Of a DNA stretch of 22,307 nucleotides, positions 4,471 through 22,084 are shown one piece after another. The position numbers were made by a program, and so were the translations under genes. Where the stretch lies: positions 1 to 22,307 of the forward strand of contig CAYNDU010000020.1 of the NCBI GenBank assembly GCA_964395615.1. The letters run 5' to 3'. The stretch is from an uncultured Pirellulaceae bacterium. GTDB taxonomy: Bacteria > Planctomycetota > Planctomycetia > Pirellulales > Pirellulaceae. Positions within the stretch are counted from its first letter, which is position 1. Each line of letters begins with the position of its first letter. The notes under the pieces were generated by a model. It made no database searches, was not told where the DNA came from, and worked only from the letters and a program-made list of their open reading frames with translations.

Positions 4471-4574
4471 GGTCCGCTCGTGATTCTCCCAGGAAATCTC
4501 GAAACTGCGGTGGTGGTAAGATTGCCGTCAGCTCAACGTGCGCCTAGTGCCTGCTGCCGACGGCAGACGAGTGA

Positions 4575-5093
4575 TCACGCGCCTTCTCGCTCTTGCATTG
4601 CTTGTTTGGGTCGAGGCGGAAGCGTGTACACGACCTCCGGAAAATGCTCGACCATGTAATGAAGGACACCGGTCACCCCCAACATACCAATTGGTCGATT
4701 CTCGTCATCGACAATCGGCATGCGTCGGTATCCGCCCTGAGACATCGCGCGAATCGCTGTGGCGACGGTGTCTCGACTCGTCAAGGCGACCGGTCGTTGG
4801 ACCATGATCTCATCAATCGGGCGATCCCAGGGGACTCCAGTCGCCATGAGACGCACCGCGTCTCTCTCGGTGAAGATACCTTGCAGTCGCCCACCGCCGT
4901 CGCAGATCAGGACCGATCCCCGGTTGCGCGACTTAAGCAATTCAAACACGGCCCGAACCAACGTGCCCGGTGCCACGACGAGAGGTTCCGTGGGGTGCGC
5001 ATGGTCGACCGTTTCCGAGTCCAGATTCAATTGAAATTGCACGAGGTGATTCCCAGCAGGAAAATCGGGGCCCAAGATGTCTGTTCCAATCAA
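4575..5093 (-). CDS. CBS-domain pair protein, ~155-172 aa (start uncertain, non-ATG)
   Basis: It has two CBS repeats (SVLICDGGGRLQGIFTERDAV and RMPIVDDENRPIGMLGVTGVLHYM). The track's start at 5093 is TTG with no upstream RBS. There is no in-frame ATG before the first CBS repeat. A GTG at 5042-5040 preceded by GGGAA is an alternative start. The gene lies 105 bp upstream of korA on the same strand. Confidence 0.75.
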   Translation of the reverse strand: MIGTDILGPDFPAGNHLVQFQLNLDSETVDHAHPTEPLVVAPGTLVRAVFELLKSRNRGSVLICDGGGRLQGIFTERDAVRLMATGVPWDRPIDEIMVQRPVALTSRDTVATAIRAMSQGGYRRMPIVDDENRPIGMLGVTGVLHYMVEHFPEVVYTLPPRPKQAMQEREGA

Positions 5094-7081: not shown

Positions 7082-8293
7082 GTGTCGCCTACGTTCTCTA
7101 CCATTTCGGCTGCCGTCGACGCTGTTGCGCGCGGCGAAGTCGTAATTGTCGTCGATGCGGAAGATCGAGAAAATGAAGGCGACTTCATCTGTGCGGCGGA
7201 AAAAGCAACTCCCGAGGTCGTGAATTTTCTGATTTCGGGACGAGGTGAGTTCTGCCTGTCCGTTTTGCCCGACGTCTGCCGCCGGCTCCAGGTGTCACCC
7301 CTGGTCGACGCAAACACTGCTCCGTTGCGGACGGCATTCATGACGCCCCTTGACCACGCCAGCGCCAAGACGGGCATCACGGCCTTCGAGCGATCGATGA
7401 CTGCCCGAGCCATTGTGGATCCGAATTCGACTGCCGAGGATTTCGTGCGACCGGGGCATGTTCACTTGTTGCTGGCCAAGGAAGGGGGAGTCTTGCGTCG
7501 AGCCGGTCATACAGAAGCAGCCGTCGATCTGGCTCGCCTCGCCGGTTTGACGCCCGCAGGAGTTCTTTGCGAAATCCTTAACGACGAAGGCCAGCGAGCG
7601 AGCCGAGAGCAATTACTGAAAATTGCAGAACGGCACAATCTGCAGATGATTTCGATTGACCAGCTGATCGCTCATCGGCGATTGAGTGAGCAATTGGTCA
7701 CTCGTGTCAGTGAAACGACGCTGCCAACGCGGCACGGGAGATTCAACCTGGTCGTATACGATGTGAAATACGAAACAAACGCTCCGATTGCGCTGGTTAT
7801 GGGAGATGTCACGGATCCGAAACGCGTCCCCTTGGTAAGGATGCATTCGAGTTGCTTCACCGGCGATCTGCTGAATTCGTTGCGTTGCGATTGCGGGGAT
7901 CAACTGCAAATGGCCCTCGAGATGATTGGAAATGAGGGGCTGGGAGCGGTCGTCTACCTTCCTCAGGAAGGACGCGGGATTGGGCTCGTCGAGAAGATCA
8001 AGGCCTACGCGTTACAGGACGAAGGGCTGGACACCGTTGAGGCCAACCACGCGCTCGGCTTTCAGGCCGACATGCGAGACTATGGGGTCGGCATCCAGAT
8101 TCTCAAGAACTTGGGACTGTCGCAGATTCGTCTATTGACCAATAACCCGAAGAAGATCGAGGCATTTAATCTGAGAGGTTACGATCTCAATGTCGTCGAT
8201 CAGGTCCCTATTCTTCCACCGGCCAACAAGCACAATGCCCAGTATCTTGCCACCAAGCGGGACAAGATGGGGCATCACCTCCCCCTCGACTAG
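7082..8293 (+). CDS. ribBA: Bifunctional 3,4-dihydroxy-2-butanone-4-phosphate synthase / GTP cyclohydrolase II, 403 aa
   Basis: The N-terminal half has RENEGD, the DHBP-synthase signature. The C-terminal half has the GTP cyclohydrolase II zinc motif (RMHSSCFTGDLLNSLRCDCGDQL), and the ribA-type conserved stretches GRGIGL and NHALGF. GTG start at 7082 is preceded by AAAGAGG with a 7-nt spacer. The 403-aa length is typical of RibBA. Confidence 0.92.
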   Translation: MSPTFSTISAAVDAVARGEVVIVVDAEDRENEGDFICAAEKATPEVVNFLISGRGEFCLSVLPDVCRRLQVSPLVDANTAPLRTAFMTPLDHASAKTGITAFERSMTARAIVDPNSTAEDFVRPGHVHLLLAKEGGVLRRAGHTEAAVDLARLAGLTPAGVLCEILNDEGQRASREQLLKIAERHNLQMISIDQLIAHRRLSEQLVTRVSETTLPTRHGRFNLVVYDVKYETNAPIALVMGDVTDPKRVPLVRMHSSCFTGDLLNSLRCDCGDQLQMALEMIGNEGLGAVVYLPQEGRGIGLVEKIKAYALQDEGLDTVEANHALGFQADMRDYGVGIQILKNLGLSQIRLLTNNPKKIEAFNLRGYDLNVVDQVPILPPANKHNAQYLATKRDKMGHHLPLD

Positions 8294-8299
8294 CGTGTC

Positions 8300-8353
8300 T
8301 GCCCGTTCCCCTGGCCCTGCCCGTTCCCCTGGCCCTGCCCGTTCCCCTGGCCC
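8300..8353. repeat. Perfect 3x 18-bp tandem direct repeat (TGCCCGTTCCCCTGGCCC) immediately 3' of ribBA stop
   Basis: Read directly: three identical units at 8300-8317, 8318-8335 and 8336-8353, starting 7 nt after the ribBA TAG. It is not a hairpin-forming sequence and is not interspersed with spacers. Confidence 0.9.
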
Positions 8354-8404
8354 TGCACATTGCAAAAAGAGAACCGCCGGCCGGTCCGGTCATGCGCCTA
8401 CGAT

Positions 8405-8433
8405 TTGACCAGACGCCAAATGTGACGTAGATA
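8405..8433 (+). promoter_or_regulatory. Weak candidate sigma70-like promoter (TTGACC-17nt-TAGATA)
   Basis: The hexamers are at 8405-8410 and 8428-8433, with 17-nt spacing. It lies about 250 bp upstream of the 8682 ORF. Promoter consensus for this lineage is unknown, so this is speculative. Confidence 0.15.
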
Positions 8434-8681
8434 TCTGTTGTGGGCAGTTCGCGCCGATTCATTCACTGACGTCGCGGACACAGCTCCTGGGCTCGCCCCG
8501 AGCATTACGTGCCCCAGCCTTTTCTTGGTCGACCGTCAACGACCCGGATTCCTCCACATATTTCGCACCGAGCGAACGCGCGCCGCTTCGCTCCGATTGG
8601 GATTGAGTGCCCTGTTCCTATCGAACCGGACAACGCCGGTCCTGGCATCGGGTGCGTTCGATCTCGAAAGAGAGTTAACGA

Positions 8682-9122
8682 ATGACTTCATTGGCCTGTG
8701 GCCTGCCCGGCACCTTGAATCAGGTCCCCGGCATTGCGGCGGATCAGTCGATTCGCGAGCGGGTTCGGTTGCTGTTTCAGATGTATCGGCAGCAGACGAC
8801 CGGTGACGACCGGCGCAACGATCGACGTGAACCGTTTCCTTTTCCAATCTACGTAACTCCCGTTGATGAGGGTGGTTCGGCAGTCGTCGACGACACACTG
8901 GTCGTTTTGGGCAAACATTTGTCCGAACGTGGGCTAGACTTTTATTATGAGGCACCACTGCCGTATCGCCGCGTCATTGCCTCCTGGGAGAGCTCTGCCG
9001 GGCATTGGTTGGCTCTTTTGCTCGACCTGCGCTGGTGTCGCTGCAACAAACATGGTTGGTACGAGAATGGAGGGCGTTTTCTGCAGGTGGTTGATTCACC
9101 GTTGAGTGACGCTCACCGATAA
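8682..9122 (+). CDS. Hypothetical protein, 146 aa (possible degenerate PilZ-like motif)
   Basis: ATG at 8682 is preceded by GAAAGAGAG with a 7-nt spacer, a good RBS. It contains RRNDRR (RxxxR) followed about 30 aa later by VVLGKHLSERGLDF. This loosely resembles the PilZ (D/N)xSxxG block (S and G are kept, D is replaced by H). No other recognisable motif is present. Confidence 0.5.
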   Translation: MTSLACGLPGTLNQVPGIAADQSIRERVRLLFQMYRQQTTGDDRRNDRREPFPFPIYVTPVDEGGSAVVDDTLVVLGKHLSERGLDFYYEAPLPYRRVIASWESSAGHWLALLLDLRWCRCNKHGWYENGGRFLQVVDSPLSDAHR

Positions 9123-9236
9123 GCGCTCGTTCCGATCGCCGTCCGGTTCGGTTGAGACCCTCCAGGCCTCATCCAGACCCGTCACGGTTCGCTCGGACCG
9201 GCGTTCTATCGGACAGGAAGGGATCGCTATCCCTGG

Positions 9237-9268
9237 CACGTGGAGTCACGTGTTTCGTTTCTTCTTCG
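9237..9268 (+). terminator. Candidate rho-independent terminator
   Basis: The hairpin is CACGTG-gagt-CACGTG (6-bp stem). It is followed by TTTCGTTTCTTCTTC, and lies about 115 bp downstream of the 9122 stop. Confidence 0.3.
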
Positions 9269-9367
9269 CCATTCCACAATTGAGTGGTCGGAGCACTGTT
9301 GCAATCGACGGCCAGTAATGCTGTCGTTTTGAGATACGATTGCGAATACGTCATTCGCTGCAATGTG

Positions 9368-9409
9368 CCGGGCCGCGCTGTCAACAAGCGCGGCCCGGTC
9401 TGTTTCTTG
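9368..9409. terminator. Strong GC hairpin terminator in convergent intergenic gap
   Basis: It has a perfect 11-bp stem, CCGGGCCGCGC (9368-9378) / GCGCGGCCCGG (9388-9398), with loop TGTCAACAA. It is followed by TCTGTTTCTTG on the plus strand. It sits 9 nt beyond the minus-strand stop at 9418 and could serve both convergent genes. Confidence 0.5.
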
Positions 9410-9417
9410 CCGCTTGA

Positions 9418-12357
9418 TTATCGAGACGCCGTTCTGCTTTTCAGTAACTTGCGGATCTCCGGTTCCAGCTCGGTTACCCTGTGACCGACCGCGACGATCG
9501 TTCCCTCACGGTTCAACACCATCATGGTTGGTATTCCCGATATGCCGCTATCGGTCGCCACTTGCTGAGCATCGCTGCCAACCACGTTTGTCCAGGGTAT
9601 CTTCTTTTCGTCCAGAAAAGCGGCGAGTTTTTCCTGGTCCTTGTCCAGGCTGATCGCCACCACCTCGAGGCCCTCGCCGTGCAGTTGATCGTACAGATCG
9701 CGCAGGTGGGGGTACTCGCGAAGGCAGGGTCCACACCAGGTGGCCCAAAAATCGACCAGCACGACCTGGCCACGGTAACTGGGCCAGTCAAGGGGGACGC
9801 CAAGGGCCGTCTTCTTGTCAGACAAATCCAGCGGCGTGCCGACAAGGTCATTCGTCTCGGCCCCTCCGGACTTGGCGATCTTGCGGCCGTACCGAGCCAG
9901 TTGATTGTCTCGGCTTTTCGCGAACAGCTTGCCGAACTGGCCAAAATAATCCTGGCGTTCGTCGTCCTTTTCCAGGCGATTGATCAACTTGACGGTCGAC
10001 GACGCGAGGCGTAAGTGCTGTTTGATCAGTTTCTCTTGAGCAGAGAAGTACTTGTCCAACCGAGCCAGAAAGGGCGGGATTTCGGTGACCGGCAGCTCCA
10101 CCGCCTCGATCGTCTCGCGTTCCAAGCGAAAAAATGCCACCTGTTCGGCGATCGCCGAGCGGGGATCCGAAGCCATTTGGGAAACGAATTCCATCAGCTG
10201 CCGATCCGATTGCTCGTCGTCCAGACAGGCTCTCTCGTGGAGCGTTTTGAATTTTACGAGAGCGGCATAGACCTGGTACCGGCTCTTCGTCTCTGCCGCT
10301 ATCACTCGAGTCGCCGCTTCGACGATCGCTTCAGCGAAGCCCGGCCGCCGCTGGATGCTCTGCGGCTTCTCTTCCATGTCCATCAAGTAATCGACCAGCC
10401 CGGCCGGCGTCAAACTGGCCGAAGCCAGGTAGGGATTCGAGTCCTCGGCAACCTCCGGCAATTCCAGTTTCTGGGACGGACCGTCGTCATCCGAAGCATC
10501 CGCCGTCCTTGCCGCCGTCACTACCATATGCGCCAGTCCGGCACCCGTCGCCGGTCGATCCGTTGTCGAATCGTCATTCGCGATTTCGGCCACGAGTCCG
10601 GCCCATTTCAACTGGGTGCCGCTCGGCGAGTGTTCGCGCCGTATAGAGCCTTGTTTCGACGGTCCGGGACCCGCGGCCGGTTGCTTCGTACCGGGCGTCG
10701 CCCCAGCCGGTTCCGGGGGGCCAAGCAATTCAGCCAACTTCTGGTCAAGTGCCTGCCCGCGGACGTGCAGTTCTTGAACGATTCCCTGGCGGTCAAGCAG
10801 CACGACAAACGGAATCGTCTCGACGCCACATTGGTCGGCCAGCGCGTTATTCGAGATCGTCACCCAGGGGAGTTTTTCGCTCTCCAGGAACTGCCGAACC
10901 GTCGCGGCATTCTGATCGAGGTTCACGCCGATTACCTCGAATCCCTTGTCCCGGTAGGCTTCATAGTTCTTGCGAACGTTGGGCATCTCCTGCAGACAGG
11001 GCCCGCACCAGGTGGCCCAAAAATCGACCAGTACGATTTTCCCCTTGTAACGAGCGAAATCGAAGGCCGTTCCGTCCATCAATGTACCTTCGATTACGAG
11101 CGGTTTTCCGACCAACTCCAGTCGCCGTCGTGCCTGTTGTACGCGCCGTTGGGCGTTGGCGACCAGCTCTTGATCCTTGGATTTTGCGAACGCCAGCTCG
11201 ATCGAATCACAGACTTGGATGCCCAGAGCATATTTTCCCATCTGTTCCAGCATCTCCGCCGTCTGCGTCGCCCTGTCCAAGACAATGGGCCCTGGGTTGG
11301 GGCGGGCCATCATTTGGCTGAAAGCGGTCGTAAAGGCCTGCTCCGCGTCCTTCTCCTCCAAGGCAATGGCACGCAGCTTTGCGTCCAGGTCGAGATCAAG
11401 AATATCGAGCTGTTGGAACATGTTGGCTGCTTCGGCGGCGACCTCCGGGTCCTTGTGGTTCTTGAATGCTTCGGCCGTCATTCGAAAGGCAGTCCGAGCC
11501 TCCTGCTCGCGACCAAGTTGCCTCAACACCAGCACCAGCTGCTGGCAAACTGCCTGGACTTCGCCGTTACGCGCCTCGTTGGCCAAAAGCGCCTGCAGGT
11601 CCGTCATGAGGCCCTCCGTTCCCGCCCCACCTTTCTGGGACACTTCCCCAATGTGCAAACCGAACAAGATGGTCCGGCCGCGAATGGCCAGCTCGGGGTC
11701 TTTGTCCGCTGCCAGCGTCTGTGCAAACGCCTTGACTTCATCGACACGTGAGCGTTCGGGCGAGAGCTGGCTCAACGCAGCCAAGGCGTTCAGTTTTGCC
11801 TCGATCCCCGTCTTTTTCTGGACGGCATCGAGCGGGCTTGATGCCAGCAGCTTGTCAGCCACTTCCAATCGTCGATCGAAGATGGCCCGCATCTTATCGA
11901 GCACGGTGTTTTCACTGCCGGGCGCCGGGCGTCCTTGCATCTGCAGATCGCGGTATTGCTGGTCGAGTTTCTTGAGCGCCTCGACCAACTGAACGGGAGT
12001 GGCGTCCGGCGGTACGATGACCGGGTCGAGTTTGTCGCTGGTTATGGTCGGCGGTTGCTCGGGAACACCGCCGGAGGGCTGCATGGATGACCGCTGACCG
12101 CCCGTCGACCCAACCGGTGCAGACGGCGTCGCTCCGGCTGTATCCGACGCATCACCGGTCCCGCCTCCGTCCGTCGATTCGACGCCCGGGGAGTCCTCGG
12201 CAACTTCCCATTTCTTCTGGCTCGATTCGGCGTCTGCCGAATCGGACGAGCTGCATCCGAACGACACGACGGCGATCGACAGCAAACAAGCCGACGGAAG
12301 TGCATACAGGGGCATCCATCTGCGGAAATCGGGTCGAGGTTGCCGGACTGTACGCAT
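9418..12357 (-). CDS. Large exported multidomain thiol:disulfide oxidoreductase with two TlpA/ResA-like thioredoxin domains, ~979 aa (track ORF to GTG at 12429 = 1003 aa)
   Basis: Two thioredoxin-fold CxxC modules with TlpA-style context are present: VLVDFWATWCGPCLQEMPNV...GFEVIGVNLD and VVLVDFWATWCGPCLREYPHL...LEVVAISLD. Each is preceded by a long helical module, and the two halves are separated by a Pro/Gly-rich linker (GPPEPAGATPGTKQPAAGPGPSKQG). The N-terminus looks like a signal peptide with a lipobox-like VVSFGC. The ATG at 12357 has GGAG 8 nt upstream. The track's start at 12429 is GTG. Confidence 0.85.
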   Translation of the reverse strand: MRTVRQPRPDFRRWMPLYALPSACLLSIAVVSFGCSSSDSADAESSQKKWEVAEDSPGVESTDGGGTGDASDTAGATPSAPVGSTGGQRSSMQPSGGVPEQPPTITSDKLDPVIVPPDATPVQLVEALKKLDQQYRDLQMQGRPAPGSENTVLDKMRAIFDRRLEVADKLLASSPLDAVQKKTGIEAKLNALAALSQLSPERSRVDEVKAFAQTLAADKDPELAIRGRTILFGLHIGEVSQKGGAGTEGLMTDLQALLANEARNGEVQAVCQQLVLVLRQLGREQEARTAFRMTAEAFKNHKDPEVAAEAANMFQQLDILDLDLDAKLRAIALEEKDAEQAFTTAFSQMMARPNPGPIVLDRATQTAEMLEQMGKYALGIQVCDSIELAFAKSKDQELVANAQRRVQQARRRLELVGKPLVIEGTLMDGTAFDFARYKGKIVLVDFWATWCGPCLQEMPNVRKNYEAYRDKGFEVIGVNLDQNAATVRQFLESEKLPWVTISNNALADQCGVETIPFVVLLDRQGIVQELHVRGQALDQKLAELLGPPEPAGATPGTKQPAAGPGPSKQGSIRREHSPSGTQLKWAGLVAEIANDDSTTDRPATGAGLAHMVVTAARTADASDDDGPSQKLELPEVAEDSNPYLASASLTPAGLVDYLMDMEEKPQSIQRRPGFAEAIVEAATRVIAAETKSRYQVYAALVKFKTLHERACLDDEQSDRQLMEFVSQMASDPRSAIAEQVAFFRLERETIEAVELPVTEIPPFLARLDKYFSAQEKLIKQHLRLASSTVKLINRLEKDDERQDYFGQFGKLFAKSRDNQLARYGRKIAKSGGAETNDLVGTPLDLSDKKTALGVPLDWPSYRGQVVLVDFWATWCGPCLREYPHLRDLYDQLHGEGLEVVAISLDKDQEKLAAFLDEKKIPWTNVVGSDAQQVATDSGISGIPTMMVLNREGTIVAVGHRVTELEPEIRKLLKSRTASR

Positions 12358-12574
12358 GAGAAGACTCCATACAACAAGAAAAAATACGCGGGTCCCGCTT
12401 GGGAACCAATTACTTCGACGGCCGGTCACTCCAGCGGTCCCATTGTAGGAGATTGCCGTGGGGCAGGCACCCCCGATTTGGAGCCCACGGATCTCGCCCG
12501 GATCGCGTCGGATCGCGCCAAAATCATAGCTCCCGCGTGGATGTGCGACGACGTCGAGCCGCTACTCTCTAAGC

Positions 12575-13750
12575 TCAATCGGTCGTCGGAACCGCCGATG
12601 ACGTTAACAGCCGGTTTAGAAGTCGCTCCAATTCATCGCCCCGTGCCGATAACGAGACGACCTTGCCCTGAGCATCGACAAGGATCATCACCGGGATCGC
12701 CATGATTCCGTATTCCCGGACGGCCGAGTTCTGTCCCTTGTCACTTCCCGGATGCAATGTGATCCAGGGCAGTTTCGCTTCCTGCACGTATCGATCCAGT
12801 GCTTTACGGTCGACGTCCAGGCTGACACCGACAATCTCAAAGCCCCGGCGATGGAAACGCCGGTAGACATCCTTGAGTCGTTGATGTTCGGCCACGCAGG
12901 GTTGGCACCATGAGGCCCAGAAATCGATCAACACGGCTTGCCCCCGCAACTGATCGATGGAGAAGACGCGTCCGTCCAGCCTATGGCCCTGCAACGAAAG
13001 GGGTCTTCCAGGAAGGGCCATTCGCCTCGCCGCACCGGAAAACACGGCTGCCATATCACGGATCTCCAGGTCCTCACTGCCCGCGGCCAGCCGGGCAAAG
13101 GTCGTGTACGCTTCCTCTGCCAAGAGCCGGTCGCTCTGTTCGAGTTGCTGTGCCACCTGTTGAGCAAGGCCGATATCGCCCGGACCCAAAGGGCCCCTGG
13201 CTCGCTTCCACCGCAGCAATTCCTGCCATTTCTGGTATTGGTCCGCACGTTCTTTTCCCGACAAATCACCGGCCGAACGAATTCGATCACGCAAGAGAAT
13301 CTCGGTCGACTTCCAATAGGTTGTTGACTTTGGTTCGACGGGTAGAGCCAACAGCCGCTTGGCGGCGGCTACGAGTGCCACAGGTGCGTCACGTTGGTAA
13401 CGGAGCAGATCATTGGTGTCGACTGGCTCGTACTGTTGGATTCTGTCGATAAACGCGTCAAGTTCAGCCACATCGCCCTGCGGAACATCGAAAAACGAAT
13501 CAGGTGCCGCTTGCTCTTCGTGCTCCCCGTACTCCTCGTACTCCTCGTCCGGTTCAGCGGAGCGTCGAATCCGAGCTGCATCGTCATCGGCCGGATGGGG
13601 CCCAATCTCGGCTTCGCTGTGGCACCCCGCCAGGCAGCAGAGGAAGATGGTCGCCAGTCGGCGCGGGCTCGAAGACGTCACTTGTTTGCCGATCGATGAC
13701 GATCGCGGGCACGGAAGGAGTCGAAAGAGGTGGTGTGCTAACGCGGCCAT
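12575..13750 (-). CDS. TlpA/ResA-like thiol:disulfide oxidoreductase, probable lipoprotein, 391 aa (or 368 aa from GTG 13681)
   Basis: The C-terminal thioredoxin module reads AVLIDFWASWCQPCVAEHQRLK...GFEIVGVSLD...KLPWITLH. The N-terminal helical module is paralogous to those in the adjacent large protein. An internal GTG at 13681 would give the N-terminus MTSSSPRRLATIFLCCLAGC, a textbook lipoprotein signal with an LAGC lipobox. Both candidate starts have weak RBS. Confidence 0.85.
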   Translation of the reverse strand: MAALAHHLFRLLPCPRSSSIGKQVTSSSPRRLATIFLCCLAGCHSEAEIGPHPADDDAARIRRSAEPDEEYEEYGEHEEQAAPDSFFDVPQGDVAELDAFIDRIQQYEPVDTNDLLRYQRDAPVALVAAAKRLLALPVEPKSTTYWKSTEILLRDRIRSAGDLSGKERADQYQKWQELLRWKRARGPLGPGDIGLAQQVAQQLEQSDRLLAEEAYTTFARLAAGSEDLEIRDMAAVFSGAARRMALPGRPLSLQGHRLDGRVFSIDQLRGQAVLIDFWASWCQPCVAEHQRLKDVYRRFHRRGFEIVGVSLDVDRKALDRYVQEAKLPWITLHPGSDKGQNSAVREYGIMAIPVMILVDAQGKVVSLSARGDELERLLNRLLTSSAVPTTD

Positions 13751-13845
13751 GGGTCAGTGTCCCAAGTGTTGCGTCCCGACGTGACCGGCACGGTCCTGGG
13801 CCGAGAACGGTTACGCATGATCTACGGCAAAGCCAAACGTGGAGA

Positions 13846-15759
13846 CTAACCGCCTTCTCCGTGATAATCCACGATGGTTTTCCATGCTTCTTCGGGCGAT
13901 TCGGCGAACGAGATCAGCGACAGGTCCTCGTCATCGATGACACCCTCATCTGCCAGGAATTGGAAATTGATCACGCGGGTCCAGTAGTCGCGACCGAAGA
14001 GCACAATGGGGATCTGCTGCATCCGCTCTGTTTGACGCAAAGTCAACGCGTCAAACAGCTCATCCAATGTCCCAAATCCACCCGGAAAAACGACCAGCGC
14101 CCGGGCTCGCATCAGAAAATGCATCTTGCGCAGCGCGAAATAGTGAAATTGAAAGCAGAGTTCCGGAGTGATGTACGCATTGGGCTGCTGCTCGGAGGGC
14201 AGCGTAATGTTGAGCCCGATCGATTTGGCCCCGGCTGAAAACGCACCGCGATTGGCCGCTTCCATGATGCCGGGCCCTCCCCCGGTCATGATGACATAAT
14301 CGCACTTGCCCTCCGTTTGGCATTGCGACGAAACTAACTGTCCGAATTGACGAGCGGCGTCGTAATACTGGGACTTCTCCAGCACTCGGCGCGCACGGTC
14401 GACCTTCCGACGGCGTACAATGTCGTCGGGTTGTTCATTTAGCCGAGCTTCCGCATGGGCCAATTTGCTTTCTGCATGAGGTCGTTCGAGGATCTGGGTT
14501 CCGCCGAAGACGACAATCGTCGAGTCAATGCCTTCGCGGATGAAACTCAACTCCGACTTGAGTAACTCCAATTGCACTCGAATCGGCCGAAGCTCCGGCT
14601 GGCTCAACAAATCAATGTCCTGTTCCGGCAGTAAGTAACTAGGTGACGCGAGGATCTTTTCGAGGTTTTTTGCCTGGTCCCCAGATGCAGCTTCCATGAT
14701 GGTCCCTTCTTTGGAATAGGAGTGGCTTGACGGGCGATCCGCGACGCGGATCCGGCCGATAAGACCGGCCATGGCGACCGTCACCACGATCAGCCCGAAT
14801 CCTGTTGTGTAACGCATCTCGACGGATAACTGAGGTAGTAGTTGAGCGAGGTATCTCCAGCTCAGGATATAAGTATAGGTGGCGATACTGAGCCATCCGA
14901 ACCAACCGATCCTGGCCAGACGCCGCCATCCGGTTCTAGCCAGGCCCTCCAGAAGGTGTCCAGTCGTAGCCACCATGCAGAGGACCACTGCGGCTTGCCA
15001 TCCGAGATAAGCACCCGCCGTTGCCGCCCCAAGCGTCGATACCCGTTCCGGTCGCCCCTCAGGTTGGGAAGGGCGATGGCCGAACGCGAGACCGATGCGA
15101 ATCAGCCAGCCGACCAGTCCACCTACGGCAGCGCCGATCAAACTCGTCGATCCCGCTACCAGTCGCGAAGGCAGGCCGCTGCCCGACCAGGCGAAGACGG
15201 CGTGCAGGTAAGGGAACAGCCACGGCGCGGCGAGTCCGACAAGCAACGCGGGCAAGAACAAGCGTAACGGTATCTCATGGCGATCGGCGAAGATCATCGC
15301 AGCCGCCAATAGGGTCGAAAGCAGCAGGGCATGGAAGGTGAACAGCACCCACATCTGTTCGATGGTTCGATAGTAGTATTCGACCGTCCCCGCATCGCCA
15401 GGCAGGTTTCGTCCGGAGCGAAACGTCTCGCACAGTGCCAACCCGAGGAACAGGCTGGCGATCAGCAATTCGGTCAGCGGGTATCGGATAGAGATCCAGG
15501 TCCTGCAATCGCGACAGCGACCTCGCAGGACAAGCCAGCTGAAGAGCGGAACATTGTCATACCATCGAATGGCGTGCAGACAGACCGGACAGCGAGAACC
15601 GGTGGTCGCGAAATCGATCCCAATGGGAAGCCGCATTACGACGACATTCAGAAAACTCCCCACGCAAGCACCGACAAAGAAGATCCAGATCGCCAGAAAG
15701 ACGAGCATTGCGTCCGGCAATAACAGGATGAACTCAGTGGCCGTGTCAGCGTGGAGCAT
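13846..15759 (-). CDS. Fusion protein: type IV prepilin peptidase (A24/PilD)-like N-terminal membrane domain + C-terminal PpnN/LOG-family (Rossmann nucleotide-binding) domain, 637 aa
   Basis: Residues 1-110 read [12 protein letters not shown]...[10 protein letters not shown]...[31 protein letters not shown]. This is the PilD N-terminal domain with its tetracysteine CxxC...CxxC. It is followed by hydrophobic TM segments containing the first conserved Asp context (IFADRHEIP). Residues 414-637 carry the LOG signatures [23 protein letters not shown] (GGGxGxMEA) and [10 protein letters not shown] (PGGxGTxxE). The reading frame is continuous with no stop between the two halves. Confidence 0.85.
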
Positions 15760-15817
15760 ACCGGACGATCTTACTCATTCCAGAGGGGGTTCTATTGGTC
15801 GTATTCGCGTCGAACAA

Positions 15818-17650
15818 TCAGAGGAAGGGCGCCAGTGGACCGCCACGCGTCGCCAAAGCGTCAATGCGCCGACTAACATCGGCGTCTTCGACCAAGGGTG
15901 GCGCATGATGAGGTTTTGCGCGAGCGTCGATGACCAACGGCCCTTCGCACCCCCAATGCTTGTCGCGACAAAAGGCTCCCACACCACTAATATCTGTTGC
16001 CGGGTTGCTGCGCGTAAAGACCGCCCAAAGAAAATTGTCCAGCGACTGAGCCACAAAACGGCTGTCATCGACCACAATCAACAGAGCGAAGTCGGCATAC
16101 TGGCCTGTCGCGCGCAGCGATCGGCAGAGTTCTTCGATATCGTCTCGAGCCGTGCCGGTTGCCGCAGGTCCCTGGATCGCCACAACACCCGGCAAAACGA
16201 GCGTCGGTTCCGAAAATCCCGCCGGCAGAACGTGCGGGTCGGTAAAGGTCACGGGCAACGCCCGCCGCACGGGTCCGGAAGCCGCGACCACCAACTTGGA
16301 GCCCTCATTGATGCACGGGCCCGTGTAATCGAGCGTGTCAATGGTCGTCTCCGTCTGAAAGTGCAAATCGCGGCGCCAGTCAACTCGCCGCAATAAGTGA
16401 TCAAGAAACTTGCCAATATCGAACAGGTCCAAATCAGGATTGTCCTGGCCGTTCACGATCAGCAGGTACTTGGCCAGTGACATTTGCCCCTGTCCCAGGA
16501 TGGCATTGGCTTGAGTTAGCAACTCCCGCGGCCTGGACTGACCGTCGTACGGGGCGTATCGCTCGCTGCCGATCGCCAACATCAGCGGGTGGACGCCTGC
16601 CGCGTCAACTGCGTGGACAGCTTTCAATCCCGGGATCAACGTTGGGACAACCGGGGCCGTTATTTCATGGATCAGCTCTCCGAAAACCGTATCCTCCTGT
16701 GGAGGCCGGCCGACGACCGTGAACGGCCAAATGGCTCCCTTTCGGCAGGTCACTTGCTCAACTCGGAGAACGGGAAACCCATGTTGCAAGCTGTAATAAC
16801 CCAGATGGTCTCCGAAGGGTCCCTCGGGCTTCAGCTGATCCGGATCGATGAATCCCTGGATACAGAAATCCGCTTCCGCATAAACGGGCAACCGATCGGG
16901 CCGGCAGATCATCGGGATTCTGTGCCCGGCCAACGCACCGGCAAAAGTTAACTCCGACATGCCCTCCGGGAGCGGCATCACGGCTGCCAGCATCATGGCC
17001 GGAGTGCCACCGACAAAGACATTGACCGGTAACGGTTCACCCCGCGACAGTGCCGCCGTGTGATGCACGCCGATGCCTCGGTGAATCTGGTAATGCAAGC
17101 CGACTTCGCGATTCGCCACGTAAGAACCGCCGCCCAGCTGCACGCGATACATGCCCAGGTTGCTCTCTGCCATTCCCGGGCGTTCCGGGTGCTCGGTGTA
17201 AACCATCGGCAGCGTCACATAAGGACCGCCATCATCGGGCCAGGATTGCAGCTGTGGCAACTGGTCAATCGTCAATTGCTCCCCAAAGACCGGGCCCGTG
17301 CGCTTTCGGCGAGGCCGCATGTGCGCCACGGTCGGCAATGATGACAGAGATTGAAGAGGCCGGCGAAGAACCTGGGTCGGATCCAGTTTCAATTCGATCA
17401 ATCGCCGCACGTGATCCAGTTGGCGCCGAAAAATAAACCGAGCACGCTCGAGGGAGCCAAAAAGGTTCGAGACCATCGGAAACCGGCAACCCTTGACATT
17501 CTCAAACAGGACCGCCGGGCCGCAGCTGCGAAACACGCGTCTTTGTATTTCGGCAGCTTCGAGCCTCGCGTCGACAGGATCTGAGAGCCGGACCAGGTGT
17601 CCGGACCGTTCCAAATCCGCGACGCAGTGCTGCAGGGTTCGGTACGTCAT
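15818..17650 (-). CDS. UbiD-family (prFMN-dependent) decarboxylase, 610 aa
   Basis: The N-terminus (MTYRTLQHCVADLERSGHLVRLSDPVDARLEAAEIQRRVFRSCGPAVLFENVKGCRFPMVSNLFGS) aligns by eye with the E. coli UbiD N-terminus (LRDF..LE..GEL.RI...VDP.LEI.EI.DR....GPALLFEN.KG...PV..NLFG). It is longer than the canonical 490-500 aa UbiD. It ends 58 bp upstream of the next same-strand gene. Confidence 0.88.
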   Translation of the reverse strand: MTYRTLQHCVADLERSGHLVRLSDPVDARLEAAEIQRRVFRSCGPAVLFENVKGCRFPMVSNLFGSLERARFIFRRQLDHVRRLIELKLDPTQVLRRPLQSLSSLPTVAHMRPRRKRTGPVFGEQLTIDQLPQLQSWPDDGGPYVTLPMVYTEHPERPGMAESNLGMYRVQLGGGSYVANREVGLHYQIHRGIGVHHTAALSRGEPLPVNVFVGGTPAMMLAAVMPLPEGMSELTFAGALAGHRIPMICRPDRLPVYAEADFCIQGFIDPDQLKPEGPFGDHLGYYSLQHGFPVLRVEQVTCRKGAIWPFTVVGRPPQEDTVFGELIHEITAPVVPTLIPGLKAVHAVDAAGVHPLMLAIGSERYAPYDGQSRPRELLTQANAILGQGQMSLAKYLLIVNGQDNPDLDLFDIGKFLDHLLRRVDWRRDLHFQTETTIDTLDYTGPCINEGSKLVVAASGPVRRALPVTFTDPHVLPAGFSEPTLVLPGVVAIQGPAATGTARDDIEELCRSLRATGQYADFALLIVVDDSRFVAQSLDNFLWAVFTRSNPATDISGVGAFCRDKHWGCEGPLVIDARAKPHHAPPLVEDADVSRRIDALATRGGPLAPFL

Positions 17651-17877
17651 TGAGACATTCTTCGCTATTTGTTACGACGGCAATCGGCCCAGCGACTCAA
17701 GGATCTCTTTATCCGGCGCCTCTTCACGCGGCGGCCGTCCTTGCTCTACAATACGTCGATTGCTTAAACATAACTACCTGAATCAAACGACAACAGGCCG
17801 GCACGCGTGTCCAGCCAATTGGGCAGGTACGGTCGGACGGATCGTGTCCTGTCCCATCATCCAGAGGAATTTCATCC

Positions 17878-19338
17878 ATGACCAAACTGCTTCCTGCCGA
17901 ATCAACTGTTCTGGAAAATGAAGCGGACGCCGTTGTCGTTGGGCTGCACACCGACCTCATGCTGTCAGGGAAGATCGCCGAGGTTAATGAAGCGACCGGT
18001 GATATGCTCGCACGGCTGATTGCGCAACAGGAATTGCACGGGAAAGTCGGCGAAGTCATGCGATTCATTGAGCCAAACGGTTTGAAAGCGAGCAGGCTGG
18101 TCGTCGTGGGACTGGGTGATCGTGAAGAGCTGGGACCGGGAAACGTCGGTCGAGCGGCGGGGGCAGCTGCCAAGAAACTGGCTGCCACACATTGCCGCCA
18201 GGCTGCTTTCTATTTTGATCCCGAATGGGAATCGAGCTGGTGCGTTGCCGGTCTTGTCGGAGCGTATTCGGGTTGCCGAGGACAAGACCTGTACCGCACC
18301 GATAAGAAGCTGGTTCCGCTCGACGCGATCCAATGGGACGGTGCCGCGGAACGAGATCTGCTGGAAGCTGGTGTGATCGGGCAGAGTATCGATTTGACGC
18401 GACAATTAATCAACGAACCGCCGAGTCAGATGAATCCGCGGGCGTTTGCCGATCGAGCGGCATCGGAATCCGCCAAGACGGGCCTCGACTGTGAAGTCTG
18501 GGACCAGACTCGGCTGGAGCAGGAGCGATGCGGCGCTCTTCTGGCCGTCGCACGCGGGTCGGCACAACCGCCGTGCCTGCTAATACTCAAGCATCGGGGG
18601 AATCCTGACTCGGAGGAATGCCTGGCGCTCGTCGGCAAAGGAGTCACGTTCGATTCCGGCGGCCTGTCGCTCAAGCCGAGCGAAGGAATGAAGACGATGA
18701 AGTGTGACATGGGCGGAGCAGCCACCGTTCTCGGCGCCATGTTGGCAATTTCAAAGTTGCAGGTGCCGTTAAACGTGGTCGGGTACGCCGGACTTGTCGA
18801 GAATATGGTCAGTGGCGATTCTTACAAGTTGGGCGACGTTCTCACGGCTCGTAGCGGCACCAGGATCGAGGTGCTTAATACCGATGCCGAAGGACGCCTC
18901 GTGTTGGCCGATGCGCTGAACGTGGCTGTGTCTCAAGGTGCTTCCAGAATAGTCGACCTCGCCACTTTGACCGGAGCATGCCTGGTTGCGCTGGGACTCG
19001 ATGTTGCCGGCGTGATGACGAACAATCAGGATTGGTGTGATCAGGTGTTATCCGCCGCCGGCGGTTGTGGTGAGGCTGCGTGGCAACTGCCGATGTTCGC
19101 GCAGTTCAACGAGCAAATCGAAAGTGACGTCGCCGACATCAAGAACGTTGGAGAAGGGCGCTGGGGTGGGGCCATCACGGCAGCAAAGTTCCTCGAGCGG
19201 TTTGTCGAGGATCGGCCTTGGGTGCATATCGACATCGCCGGACCTTCGTTTTCCGAAAAGCCCAAATCGTGGCTCGACGCGGGTGGTACAGGAGCTTTTG
19301 TGCGGTCACTGGTCCAATTGGCACGAAATCTTGCCTGA
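17878..19338 (+). CDS. pepA: Leucyl aminopeptidase, M17 family, 486 aa
   Basis: The M17 signature NTDAEGRL is present (VLNTDAEGRLVLADAL). Metal-ligand regions GKGVTFDSGG and DMGGAA are also present. The length is typical. ATG at 17878 has AGAGGAA upstream. Confidence 0.92.
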   Translation: MTKLLPAESTVLENEADAVVVGLHTDLMLSGKIAEVNEATGDMLARLIAQQELHGKVGEVMRFIEPNGLKASRLVVVGLGDREELGPGNVGRAAGAAAKKLAATHCRQAAFYFDPEWESSWCVAGLVGAYSGCRGQDLYRTDKKLVPLDAIQWDGAAERDLLEAGVIGQSIDLTRQLINEPPSQMNPRAFADRAASESAKTGLDCEVWDQTRLEQERCGALLAVARGSAQPPCLLILKHRGNPDSEECLALVGKGVTFDSGGLSLKPSEGMKTMKCDMGGAATVLGAMLAISKLQVPLNVVGYAGLVENMVSGDSYKLGDVLTARSGTRIEVLNTDAEGRLVLADALNVAVSQGASRIVDLATLTGACLVALGLDVAGVMTNNQDWCDQVLSAAGGCGEAAWQLPMFAQFNEQIESDVADIKNVGEGRWGGAITAAKFLERFVEDRPWVHIDIAGPSFSEKPKSWLDAGGTGAFVRSLVQLARNLA

Positions 19339-19520
19339 TCCGGCCCGTCCGGGGCCTGCCGAATGGGCCAAGAAAGACGGCCGGAGTGCGAATAGACGTT
19401 AGTTTCTTTGACCTGGGTGCCGGCTGTCCGGCCGTTGGCCGAGTACGGTCGGTCGCGGTAGACTATACGCAATTTCCTGAATTCACCCGATCATCACATC
19501 ACTCGAAGGGGTCTTCGGTC

Positions 19521-20168
19521 ATGTACACGCTGTATCTCTGTTGCGCTTTGCTGGGCGGGACTGTGTTCATTATGCAGTTTGTCCTGGCTGTCATCGGCGC
19601 GGGGGCCGATGATCTGGACTTCACGGGTGACATGCCCGACGGCGTTGACATGCCCGACGTGGGGGATCTGTCGGACCATGCGGCCGGCCATGGATCAACG
19701 TGGCTCTTCGGGGTGATTTCGTTTCGAACGGTTGTCGCGGCGATGACGTTTTTCGGGCTTGCGGGGATGGCATCGTTGGAGACGAACCTAAGCGGTCCAT
19801 TCACGCTCCTTGTTGCATTGGCAGCCGGCGCGGTCGCCATGCTCAGCGTACATTACCTCATGCAGTTGCTTTACAAGCAACGGCATGATGGTACGGCTCG
19901 TATTGAGCGAACGGTCGGTCAGCGCGCGAGCGTCTACGTTCCGATCCCGGCCGCAAACTCGGGGCTGGGAAAAATCCAGATCAGGACGCAAGGCCGGATC
20001 ATGGAATATGCCGCCAAAACGCCCGCCGATTGCAAACTGACCACCGGCACGACCGTGCAAGTTACCGCCGTGCTGACTCCTTCTACCGTGGAGGTGGAAC
20101 CTTTGGTGGAGTCTGTCGACGGATTGCCACCGGAGGATGCCTCACCCGATCCGGGCGAATCAGCCTGA
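19521..20168 (+). CDS. NfeD-like membrane protein (short YuaF-type), 215 aa
   Basis: ATG at 19521 is preceded by GAAGGGG. The track ORF from 19218 is an upstream in-frame extension that overlaps pepA. It has N-terminal TM helices (LYLCCALLGGTVFIMQFVLAVIG; WLFGVISFRTVVAAMTFFGLAG; LLVALAAGAVAML) and a C-terminal beta-rich, OB-like segment. It lies immediately upstream of a flotillin gene, matching the conserved NfeD-flotillin pairing. It carries an Asp-rich insert (DDLDFTGDMPDGVDMPDVGDLSD). Confidence 0.7.
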   Translation: MYTLYLCCALLGGTVFIMQFVLAVIGAGADDLDFTGDMPDGVDMPDVGDLSDHAAGHGSTWLFGVISFRTVVAAMTFFGLAGMASLETNLSGPFTLLVALAAGAVAMLSVHYLMQLLYKQRHDGTARIERTVGQRASVYVPIPAANSGLGKIQIRTQGRIMEYAAKTPADCKLTTGTTVQVTAVLTPSTVEVEPLVESVDGLPPEDASPDPGESA

Positions 20169-20398
20169 TTCTCTCCCGGGCAAGGTGTGGACGGCGGACG
20201 GAATCGCGGACGGATAAAGTCGTCGGCGCGACTGTTTCATCGCGGCGCCACGGATTGACTGCATGATCGAATTCGAGTGGTAGTTGCGAATTGGCGACGG
20301 ATCGCGCGTGTCCGAGGCCGCCGTTCCGTGGGATGGCGGCGCTCACGGCAGCCCGACAAGAGTGTTCTGTTCACAAATGACACGGGGAGGTTTTTTAC

Positions 20399-22084
20399 AT
20401 GATCCATCTATCCGTTCCAGCGTCGAGCCTGTTGGGCCAGACTTTTCCGTCGGGTGCATTGGGGTACGCGATCATTGCCGCCGTCTTGGTGGTGATCTTC
20501 ATGTTCAGCATCCTGCTGCTGATGGTGAAACAGTATAAGCGCTGTCCGAGCAACCGGATCCTGGTGATCTGGGGACGTGGCAAACGTTCCGGTACGCCCA
20601 CCAAGACGATCCACGCCGGCGCCCAGTTCGTGCTGCCGTTGTTGGAGGATTACGCCTATTTGAGCCTCGAACCGATTCAGATCGAGATTCCACTACGCGG
20701 TGCCCTCTCCTTTGAGAATATTCGTGTCAATGTGCCGAGCGTCTTTACCGTCGCCATCAGCACCGAAAAGACGGTGATGCAACAGGCGGCCATTCGCCTG
20801 CTTGGCCTGTCGGTCGGAGAGGTTCGCAAACAGGCGGAAGAGATCATCTTCGGTCAATTGCGACAGGTGCTCGCTTCGATGGGGATCGAGGAAATCAACC
20901 GAGATCGCGATGTGTTCCTGCAGCACATTCAATCGTCGCTCGAACCGGAATTGAACAAGATCGGCCTCCAGTTGATCAATGTCAACATTACCGACATCAC
21001 CGATGAATCGGGTTACATCGACGCCATCGGACAGAAGGCCGCCTCCGAAGCAATTCAAAAGGCGCGCGGCGATGTGGCGGACAACGAACGAATGGGTGAA
21101 ACTCGAGTCGCCGACGCTGAACGCGACAAGACGATTCAAGTGGCCAACGCTCGAAAAGAGCAGGCCATTGGTACTCGCCGAGCCGAACGTGACAAGGCAA
21201 TTCAAGTTGCCGAGATGGAAAAGGAACAGTCGATCGGTGAGAAAGCAGCTGCCTTTCAGCGCGAGTCGGAGGTGAAGGAGTCTGAACGACAGATGCGGGT
21301 TCAGGTTTCCAAGGCTGAAGCCGTGGCCATCGAGGGCGAAAATGTCGCCCAGGCTACCGTCGCCGCCTCACAGGCGGAACTGGCCGTCAAGCGGGCTGAA
21401 GCGTATGAACGCGGCGAAAGCCGGAAGAAGGAAGCCGAGGCCTCCGTGTTGGAAGTGCAGAATCGGGCGTTGGCCAAGGCAGCGATCGCCGAGGCCGAGC
21501 GAGTCGAAGCCGAAAAACGGGCCGAGTTGGAAGCGCCGGCGAAAGCAGAAAAGGCTCGCGTGGTCGTCGAAGCCGAAGCGGCCGCCGATCGGAGACGCAT
21601 CGAAGCACTCGCCGAAGCCGATGCCATCTTTGCGAAACTGGATGCCGAAGCTCGCGGACAGTTCGAAGTACTCGCCAAGAAAGGCGAAGGCCTGCGCGAG
21701 ATTGTGAATGCCTGCGGCGGATCGAAACAGGCTTTCCAAATGATGCTGCTCGAACATCTCGACCACCTGGCCGAATCCTCCGCTCAGGCGATCTCCAATA
21801 TCAAGTTCGATAAGGTCATTGTCTGGGAGAATGGAGGTGCCGACGGGAAAGGAAACACGGCAGGATTCCTCAATAGCATGGCCCATACGCTCCCCCCCAT
21901 GATGCAAGTGATGAAAGACATTGGTGGAGTCGAACTGCCCGAATCGCTGATCAAACTCAATACCACCAGCGAGACGGCGGTGGCGACCGAATCGGACGGT
22001 GCCGTTGCTACACGGGTTGAGCCTGCGGGGAACGGTGACGAGGCGGAATCGACTGACGAGGAAGACACAGAGACGGCCGGTTAG
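20399..22084 (+). CDS. Flotillin-like SPFH/band-7 domain protein, 561 aa
   Basis: ATG at 20399 is preceded by GGGGAGG. It has an N-terminal TM anchor and then an SPFH-like region (ILVIWGRGKRSGTPTKTIHAGAQFVLPLLEDYAYLSLEPIQIEI...). A long Glu/Ala/Arg-rich coiled-coil follows, with internal repeats (ERDKTIQVANARKEQAIG / ERDKAIQVAEMEKEQSIG). This matches flotillin (FloT/YuaG-type) architecture. It ends in an acidic C-terminal tail. Confidence 0.88.
   Translation: MIHLSVPASSLLGQTFPSGALGYAIIAAVLVVIFMFSILLLMVKQYKRCPSNRILVIWGRGKRSGTPTKTIHAGAQFVLPLLEDYAYLSLEPIQIEIPLRGALSFENIRVNVPSVFTVAISTEKTVMQQAAIRLLGLSVGEVRKQAEEIIFGQLRQVLASMGIEEINRDRDVFLQHIQSSLEPELNKIGLQLINVNITDITDESGYIDAIGQKAASEAIQKARGDVADNERMGETRVADAERDKTIQVANARKEQAIGTRRAERDKAIQVAEMEKEQSIGEKAAAFQRESEVKESERQMRVQVSKAEAVAIEGENVAQATVAASQAELAVKRAEAYERGESRKKEAEASVLEVQNRALAKAAIAEAERVEAEKRAELEAPAKAEKARVVVEAEAAADRRRIEALAEADAIFAKLDAEARGQFEVLAKKGEGLREIVNACGGSKQAFQMMLLEHLDHLAESSAQAISNIKFDKVIVWENGGADGKGNTAGFLNSMAHTLPPMMQVMKDIGGVELPESLIKLNTTSETAVATESDGAVATRVEPAGNGDEAESTDEEDTETAG

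Follow-up and report, generated by a model that had tools for sequence, protein, structure and literature searches.

We analysed a 22,307-nt stretch of DNA from an uncultured Pirellulaceae bacterium (hereafter the window; G+C ~0.58), in which four consecutive minus-strand genes encode, in 5'-to-3' order, a UbiD-type decarboxylase, a membrane protein that ends in a LOG domain (the fusion), a 391-residue TlpA-type protein and a much larger protein with two TlpA-type domains (the tandem TlpA). The genes are close-set, with open reading frame (ORF) coordinates giving gaps of 58 nt, 95 nt and, before the last gene, 145 nt (to GTG 12429) or 217 nt (to ATG 12357) (Table 1). An earlier reading of this DNA from its letters alone (the sequence-only reading) had reported this spacing, and the identities it gave to the four products were all matched by Pfam and NCBIfam. 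The three TlpA-type CxxC motifs that it listed are likewise present, as WCQPC in the 391-residue protein and twice as WCGPC in the tandem protein. It had gone on to propose a single dedicated extracytoplasmic reductant system that includes the fusion and the decarboxylase; comparison with relatives suggests instead a variable gene neighbourhood centered on the fusion.

Table 1. Coordinates of the features discussed in the text; positions are those of the window except for the last three rows, and residues of the tandem TlpA are counted from GTG 12429.
Feature	Nucleotides	Residues	Strand	Basis
UbiD gene	15818-17650		minus	ORF and Pfam
Fusion gene	13846-15759		minus	ORF and Pfam
391-residue TlpA gene	12575-13750		minus	ORF and Pfam
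Tandem TlpA gene	9418-12429 (GTG 12429) or 9418-12357 (ATG 12357)		minus	ORF and Pfam
Fusion: prepilin-peptidase N-terminal Zn/Cys4 domain	15436-15675	29-108	minus	Pfam A24_N_bact PF06750, E 1.6e-30
Fusion: PilD-like membrane region without the GxGD aspartate		~110-345	minus	Alignment
Fusion: type II LOG domain	13846-14667	~365-637	minus	Pfam Lysine_decarbox PF03641 (E 6e-30), LDcluster4
391-residue TlpA: TPR-like helical module	13001-13513	80-250	minus	AlphaFold2 (AF2) model, module family search
391-residue TlpA: redoxin domain	12578-13000	251-391	minus	Pfam Redoxin/AhpC-TSA
Tandem TlpA: putative signal with lipobox-like SFGC, then low-complexity linker		N terminus	minus	Sequence
Tandem TlpA: helical module N1, internally duplicated	11095-12042	~130-445	minus	Module hidden Markov model (HMM)
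Tandem TlpA: Trx1, WCGPC at residue 474	10705-11094		minus	Pfam Redoxin/AhpC-TSA
Tandem TlpA: helical module N2, after a further linker	9820-10512	~640-870	minus	Module HMM
Tandem TlpA: Trx2, WCGPC at residue 898	9421-9819		minus	Pfam Redoxin/AhpC-TSA
Divergent intergenic region (227 nt) between the UbiD gene and the leucyl aminopeptidase gene (17878-19338, plus)	17651-17877			ORFs and Pfam
Hairpin, 13 bp, GC-rich, between the convergent tandem TlpA gene and plus-strand ORF 8682-9122	9367-9399			Terminator scan and folding
Weak hairpin with T-run, in the gap between the 391-residue TlpA gene and the probable tandem TlpA start	12375-12407		minus	Terminator scan
SDR gene of locus L173	7691-8491			
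SDR gene of locus L083	12003-12779			
SDR gene of locus L085	12240-13019			

The fusion is 637 residues long and is built from three parts: an A24_N Zn/Cys4 domain, a PilD-like multi-pass membrane region, and a type II LOG domain. A homology search found 340 relatives, and the 120 listed are mostly full-length fusions of ~590-720 residues that share this three-part build; all source names given among these 120 are planctomycete, Pirellula staleyi included. In an alignment of 27 sequences, the A24_N cysteines C57, C60, C82 and C85 are invariant, as are the LOG motifs GGGPGxMEAAN, R544-K545 and PGGxGTxDE (individually G493-G495, P496, G497, M499, R544, K545, P559-G561, G563, T564 and E567). The nearest structures to the LOG part are the type II LOGs 1wek and 5wq3 (E ~1e-36), and residues 365-635 share ~50% identity with stand-alone bacterial LOGs from many phyla. 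Scored as a whole protein, the fusion marginally misses the NCBIfam TIGR00730 cut-off, at 90.9 vs 96.35 bits. Since all LOG signature motifs are kept, we infer that the domain acts as a nucleotide N-glycosidase (phosphoribohydrolase).

The Peptidase_A24 model (PF01478) gave no match to fusion residues 1-350 even at E<=1. The first aspartate, D159, is kept in at least 90% of sequences and aligns with that of GxGD-bearing PilD-like ORFs, and the downstream LGW motif is kept as well. The column of the GxGD aspartate, which is D in the GxGD-bearing ORFs L101, L162 and L110, reads V, T, E, A, T and D in six fusion proteins. With this aspartate lost, the membrane part is probably inactive as a peptidase and would serve as a pseudo-peptidase scaffold. 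An invariant G-W-Q was considered as a substitute for GxGD and rejected, as the LGW is a separate conserved motif ~13 residues downstream and the GxGD column itself has decayed. Thus, of the "PilD-LOG fusion" that the sequence-only reading had named, the A24_N domain, the LOG domain and the PilD-like character of the membrane part stand, whereas the GxGD aspartate lacks conservation and the peptidase catalytic model went undetected. The window holds no pilin genes and no genes of type II/IV secretion.

Two scans widened the sample of fusion loci. The full fusion alignment, run against a genome collection as LOG-motif patterns, gave 80 loci, nearly all of them stand-alone LOG genes from unrelated phyla; the useful ones were L001, L002, L005 and L006. 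The N-terminal 350 residues of the fusion, run against metagenomes, gave mostly short contigs and ordinary PilD-like genes, which we used as comparators, along with one short extra fusion locus. Two of the metagenome loci (L095 and L102) carry ORFs of 428-450 residues with an A24_N-like domain and the LGWQ motif of the fusion type, without GxGD and without LOG, and these may represent a LOG-less form of the pseudo-peptidase scaffold. A fusion fragment 99% identical to that of the window lies on a 6.2-kb JGI contig.

Gene order around the fusion was compared across 15 distinct loci anchored on fusion homologues that are 41-55% identical to the window's protein. UbiD lies directly upstream of the fusion and on the same strand in eight of them (L001, L005, L081, L082, L083, L169, L170 and L085, the last from Pirellula staleyi), is convergent with it in one (L002), and is absent within the flank in six. 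A module-bearing TlpA lies downstream on the same strand in five (L001, L006, L081, L082 and L083). In one further locus, L088, fusion and tandem TlpA are arranged divergently, which rules out their co-transcription there. Two more (L086 and L171) have a small lipoprotein thioredoxin of ~136 residues just upstream, overlapping or abutting the start of the fusion. The remaining seven loci have no thioredoxin-fold neighbour. The small thioredoxin genes (L086 9585-9995 and L171 7591-8004) encode a lipobox of FAGC or AGGC and an active site of SCKPC or SCGPC, and both belong to lineages without UbiD or TlpA neighbours.

These neighbours combine in different ways. Only L083 repeats all four genes in order (UbiD, fusion, small TlpA, large TlpA), with a short-chain dehydrogenase/reductase (SDR) gene inserted; in this locus the stop codon of UbiD and the start codon of the fusion abut. 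UbiD, fusion and one TlpA occur together in L001, L081 and L082. TlpA is missing beside UbiD and the fusion in L005, L085, L169 and L170, UbiD is missing beside the fusion and TlpA in L006 and L173, and the fusion stands alone in L087 and L172. Locus L173 was reached independently of the fusion, from a tandem TlpA 39% identical to that of the window, and carries fusion, SDR, small TlpA and tandem TlpA. Across 307 kb of fusion loci, TlpA-type domains were found only within 2.1 kb of the fusion. Given this confinement and the recovery of the same pair from a distant TlpA anchor, the link between fusion and TlpA looks non-random, the two being neighbours more often than chance would place them. 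The conservation that the sequence-only reading had made its own test holds for the pairs UbiD-fusion and fusion-TlpA and fails for the block as a whole, each of whose junctions is broken in some relative.

The SDR gene, absent from the window's block, encodes ~260 residues and directly follows the fusion with a 2-nt gap or an overlap in L001, L083, L085, L087 and L173. The best NCBIfam model for the SDRs of L083, L085 and L173 is pteridine reductase, at 181-194 bits and below the cut-off of 288. The pairing of a LOG with a pteridine-reductase-like protein may hint at the chemistry of the fusion. In L081, both the UbiD gene (8072-9905, 451 + 122 residues) and an N1-type TlpA gene (12113-13725, 164 + 371 residues) are split into two calls, which reflect either frameshifts, pseudogenes or assembly errors.

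Both TlpA proteins of the window have the redoxin fold and the CxxC active site of thiol:disulfide oxidoreductases. Pfam Redoxin, AhpC-TSA and Thioredoxin_8 score far over their cut-offs for all three redoxin domains. Among NCBIfam models, ResA and TlpA score highest, each short of its threshold: ResA PRK03147 gives 155 and 72 bits vs 170, and the TlpA equivalog 118 and 50 bits vs 230. The 391-residue protein runs from a putative lipobox, LAGC (Cys43), through an acidic linker and a helical module into a TlpA/ResA-type redoxin domain with WCQPC at residue 281. An AF2 model of its residues 80-391 has a predicted local distance difference test (pLDDT) score of 95. Searched with Foldseek, this model matched ResA, CcmG, StoA and TlpA-like structures at its C-terminal part only, with target-normalised TM-scores of ~0.8 and a longest alignment of 154 columns; Foldseek matched no solved structure that covers module and redoxin together.

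The tandem TlpA is 979 residues long when read from ATG 12357, and its ORF stays open to GTG 12429. The ATG is preceded by GGAG and is the start used in a 100% identical public gene call of 979 residues. Relatives of at least 880 residues form 64 clusters; where a source gives a name, it is that of a TlpA, redoxin or thiol-disulfide isomerase protein. Both domains carry CxxC in 48 of the 64, and the first-domain CxxC is missing in 13; the second is always kept, and the window's protein holds both. Examples of a lost Trx1 motif are FDPRC in L082, SSISPPC in L081 and no motif at all in L088; the comparison also took in P0262-P0330. A loose lipobox pattern is matched in 52 of the 64. By sequence, lipobox-like LAGC and SFGC follow hydrophobic stretches in the two TlpA proteins of the window, and orthologues have LLGC and TAGC, which is consistent with extracytoplasmic lipid anchoring of both. 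None of the window's annotated ORFs is a CcdA/DsbD, cytochrome c maturation or Cu-protein assembly gene.

Each redoxin domain is preceded by a helical module, of ~170 residues in the 391-residue protein, ~300 in N1 and ~200 in N2. The sequence-only reading had called these modules paralogous. Single-sequence comparison does not recover this relationship, as BLASTP of module against module alone is not significant (E ~0.3), and a word-indexed homologue search with N1 found a single relative. Residues 80-250 of the 391-residue protein, searched exhaustively with HMMER, reached 139 cluster representatives, and an HMM built from 117 homologues of this module matched the tandem protein at residues 239-339, 348-443 and 751-853 with E-values of 1e-9 to 1e-12. 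Orthologues of the tandem protein give the same pattern of matches. The three modules are therefore paralogous, N1 is internally duplicated, and the earlier claim is borne out at the level of the family profile.

The module has no Pfam model. The known substrate-binding or anchoring domain that the sequence-only reading had asked about did not emerge from a fold search, which returned only generic TPR-like helical repeats and no specific substrate-binding domain; the modules are thus best described as a predicted TPR-like repeat. Of 89 relatives, 66 have the module followed by a redoxin domain, and ~10 carry WD40/PD40 propellers instead. This range of partners fits a generic docking role. It is also found as one part of far longer proteins, reaching ~1,700 residues, that have WD40/PD40 beta-propellers and no redoxin (P0138, P0157, P0159, P0142 and others).

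The UbiD protein, of 610 residues, is matched by Pfam UbiD_N, UbiD and UbiD_C. Its score against NCBIfam TIGR00148, 251.2 bits, lies above the cut-off of 244.85, and its nearest solved structure is E. coli UbiD (2idb, E 1.6e-58). The best NCBIfam model is TIGR03701 mena_SCO4490, at 363.9 bits and below the equivalog cut-off of 495.9. The protein is therefore plausibly an MqnL-like decarboxylase dependent on prenylated flavin mononucleotide (prFMN), nearest to the menaquinone (futalosine-pathway) model while short of its cut-off. Residues 461-610 (nt 15818-16270) form a C-terminal extension of ~150 residues with weak likeness to UbiD_C (E 8e-4), possibly a partial duplication of that domain. 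Every planctomycete UbiD neighbour, at 607-613 residues, carries the extension in conserved form. No UbiX/MqnM, MqnP or other mqn gene was found in the 22.3-kb sequence. A direct chemical link between LOG and the UbiD, prFMN or futalosine steps, through a futalosine nucleosidase or the supply of dimethylallyl monophosphate (DMAP), was weighed, found no support, and is not proposed.

Upstream, the block is bounded by the divergent region that the sequence-only reading had identified, opposite the leucyl aminopeptidase gene (pepA). This divergent pair of pepA and UbiD is kept in L081, L082, L085 and L169. The sole promoter-like match in the region, from a consensus scan, is on the plus strand at 17723-17752. 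At the other end of the block, a strong hairpin lies 19 nt past the stop codon, with folding energies of -33.2 kcal/mol as minus-strand RNA (z -4.4) and -35.1 kcal/mol as plus-strand RNA (z -4.2). Only on the plus strand does it carry a T-rich tail, CTGTTTCTTG; the block's own strand has none. For the plus-strand ORF 8682-9122 the element is accordingly a canonical terminator, and for the block it is a hairpin without a tail: the strong terminator claimed for the block end survives as a stable hairpin (z ~-4.3), whereas its U-rich tail serves the plus-strand transcript only.

Inside the block, the hairpin at 12375-12407 was the sole candidate for an internal terminator and was rejected, its stability not exceeding that of shuffled sequence (z -1.2). 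Consensus scans for promoters and terminators performed at the level of shuffled sequence (4 promoter-like matches vs 3.1±1.6, and 13 terminator-like matches vs 8.7±3.1), with planctomycete promoters outside the coverage of the scan. The small gaps and the lack of a significant internal signal are compatible with the single transcription unit proposed earlier. From spacing alone, the four genes are probably transcribed together in this genome, at least in part.

We read the block as a lineage-variable neighbourhood of a Pirellulales type whose hub is the membrane fusion, and not as an obligatory four-gene system, and we assign this reading a probability of roughly 0.6. In such an arrangement, a PilD-derived scaffold, with its Zn/Cys4 domain in the cytoplasm, would anchor the type II LOG domain to the cytoplasmic side of the membrane, and two separable sets of neighbours would join the hub in different genomes: UbiD upstream, and one to two TlpA/ResA-type lipoproteins downstream. 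The UbiD protein would be a prFMN decarboxylase that takes part in quinone synthesis, either in the cytoplasm or associated with the membrane. In each TlpA unit, the TPR-like module would dock clients or partners and the CxxC would reduce those that are docked, with electrons arriving from a CcdA/DsbD-type transporter encoded elsewhere. The 979-residue protein would then be a tandem fusion of two module-redoxin units, its first module duplicated internally.

Several points weigh against this reading. The MqnL assignment lies under the NCBIfam equivalog cut-off, and the TPR-like assignment of the modules draws on predicted structure and low-identity matches. The electron source is assumed, as the window holds no CcdA/DsbD gene. 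The loci are phylogenetically non-independent, and the number of independent arrangements is small, perhaps 4-6. In addition, the recurrent adjacency of fusion and TlpA argues that these genes are not functionally independent of one another.

The proposal closest to the sequence-only reading is that of a dedicated four-gene system encoded by one operon, the three TlpA domains being obligatorily tied to the LOG fusion and the prFMN decarboxylase. Close spacing on one strand without significant internal signals is what it predicts, as is the repetition of the whole order in L083 and of three of its members in L001, L081 and L082. Every junction, however, is broken somewhere: between fusion and TlpA in L005, L085, L169 and L170, between UbiD and fusion in L006 and L173, by opposed orientation in L088 and L002, and altogether in L087 and L172. 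The pteridine-reductase-like SDR interrupts the order in L001, L083 and L173, the TlpA genes differ from locus to locus in how many there are and how long, and 13 of 64 tandem relatives have lost the first CxxC. We therefore consider a fixed four-gene system very unlikely. What remains of the proposed reductant system is its parts, namely the gene identities, the CxxC motifs, the probable lipoprotein character and the paralogy of the modules; the conserved single unit does not remain. At the opposite extreme, the block could be mere inherited synteny of functionally unrelated housekeeping genes. The closest relatives, L081 and L082, share nearly the whole gene order of the window (flotillin, pepA, ribBA, korAB and others), so that their agreement is mostly common ancestry, as is much of the conservation overall, and the block decays with distance. 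Yet UbiD and the fusion are still adjacent at 42% fusion identity, in Pirellula staleyi, and their codons abut in L083, while fusion and TlpA come together again in rearranged forms that simple inheritance does not predict. Inheritance as the whole explanation is thus highly improbable.

Between these extremes, the LOG fusion and the periplasmic thioredoxin-fold lipoproteins could form a functional module across two compartments, with UbiD and SDR as optional members. For example, the pseudo-peptidase domain could bind or position lipoproteins or their clients, and the LOG domain could sense or make a nucleotide-derived signal. Genes for thioredoxin-fold lipoproteins flank the fusion in 8 of the 15 loci and do so in three configurations (downstream TlpA, divergent TlpA, and upstream overlapping small thioredoxin); the absence of TlpA-type domains elsewhere in the 307 kb and the adjacency recovered from the distant TlpA anchor point the same way. 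Against it stand the 7 of 15 loci that lack such a neighbour, the shared ancestry among loci, and a membrane region without conserved cysteines for an electron relay, the only invariant ones being the four of A24_N. No known mechanism ties LOG chemistry to thiol redox. Taken together, these points make a two-compartment module rather unlikely as it stands. A broader form of the idea makes the A24_N/pseudo-PilD/LOG fusion the hub of an undescribed, Pirellulales-specific envelope module with TPR-module thioredoxin-fold lipoproteins and, in many genomes, also the pteridine-reductase-like SDR and the MqnL-like decarboxylase, which would couple a cytoplasmic nucleotide or cofactor reaction to periplasmic thiol redox or protein maturation. 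This is speculative, and we hold it as a doubtful though specific hypothesis beside our preferred reading of a variable neighbourhood around the fusion.

The rest of the window is largely unremarkable. Positions 1050-5093 and 19218-22084 are housekeeping sequence syntenic with L081 and L082, and the housekeeping genes of the window include those for the alpha and beta subunits of a 2-oxoacid:ferredoxin oxidoreductase, flanked by CBS-domain proteins, for RibBA, and for a membrane protein followed by a flotillin-like Band_7 protein. The plus-strand ORF 8682-9122, which converges on the tandem TlpA gene and shares the hairpin at 9367-9399 with it, encodes a conserved protein of 146 residues. Its sole match is a very weak one to PilZ (E 0.04), and it stays beside the TlpA/ribBA region in L081, L082, L083 and L088. 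A PADLOC search for defence systems returned no match.

Planctomycetes have very large and poorly understood sets of exported redox proteins. Databases already annotate the families of all four proteins of the block, and relatives number in the dozens to hundreds for both the tandem TlpA and the fusion. Three features appear to be undescribed in the literature that we searched: the recurrent pairing of the TPR-like module with TlpA domains in planctomycetes, the pseudo-PilD/LOG architecture, and the non-random clustering of this fusion with thioredoxin-fold lipoproteins; the search found nothing specific on planctomycete TlpA proteins with a helical domain, nor on a link or fusion between LOG and prepilin peptidase. 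The presence of the TPR-like module on many planctomycete TlpA-type reductases suggests a route by which generic reductases could gain client specificity. The clustering of the fusion with thioredoxin lipoproteins is a concrete lead that can be tested in genetically tractable planctomycetes. We advise against annotating the apparent four-gene "system" as a single unit.

Each part of the block can be set beside a known system. The LOG domain resembles type II LOGs, whose structure is represented by Cg1261 of Corynebacterium glutamicum (PDB 5wq3; PMC5379747) and by TT1465 (1wek), in its ~270-residue C-terminal region, its extended N-terminal helices and its GGGxGxM and PGGxGTxxE motifs; it differs in being joined to a PilD-like membrane domain, an architecture met in planctomycete sequences only. 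The membrane part shares with the prepilin peptidase PilD (Peptidase A24) an A24_N_bact domain with four invariant cysteines, a first aspartate motif of the form D-x-x-x-[IV]-P, and LGW, and differs from it in lacking a Peptidase_A24 match and in its variable GxGD aspartate column. The UbiD protein has the three domains of prFMN-dependent decarboxylases of the UbiD/MqnL kind, passes the family cut-off and has mena_SCO4490 as its best model; MqnL is the decarboxylase proposed in PMC4746308. Unlike MqnL, the block's protein lies under the equivalog cut-off and has ~150 additional residues at its C terminus.

The TlpA proteins share with TlpA, ResA and CcmG (DsbE) the redoxin/AhpC-TSA thioredoxin fold, a WCxPC active site and, as their lipobox-like signals predict, membrane tethering outside the cytoplasm. 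They differ from them in scoring below the equivalog cut-offs, in having a putative lipobox instead of a transmembrane helix, and in the TPR-like module of 170-300 residues before each domain, with one protein carrying two full units; in addition, no cytochrome c maturation, Cu-chaperone or CcdA genes lie near the block. Also comparable are Etrx1 and Etrx2, surface thioredoxin-fold lipoproteins of Streptococcus pneumoniae whose genes sit with msrAB and ccdA partners (PMC3914529), and the Bacteroides TlpA-like proteins with N-terminal accessory domains (PDB 3fw2). Both 4hqz (Etrx2) and 3fw2 are among the fold matches of the 391-residue protein model. As is predicted for the block's proteins, these are lipid-anchored or multi-domain TlpA-like proteins, with the redoxin placed C-terminal to another domain or provided with dedicated partners. 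The msrAB and ccdA partners are absent at the block, and its accessory domain is a predicted alpha-solenoid.

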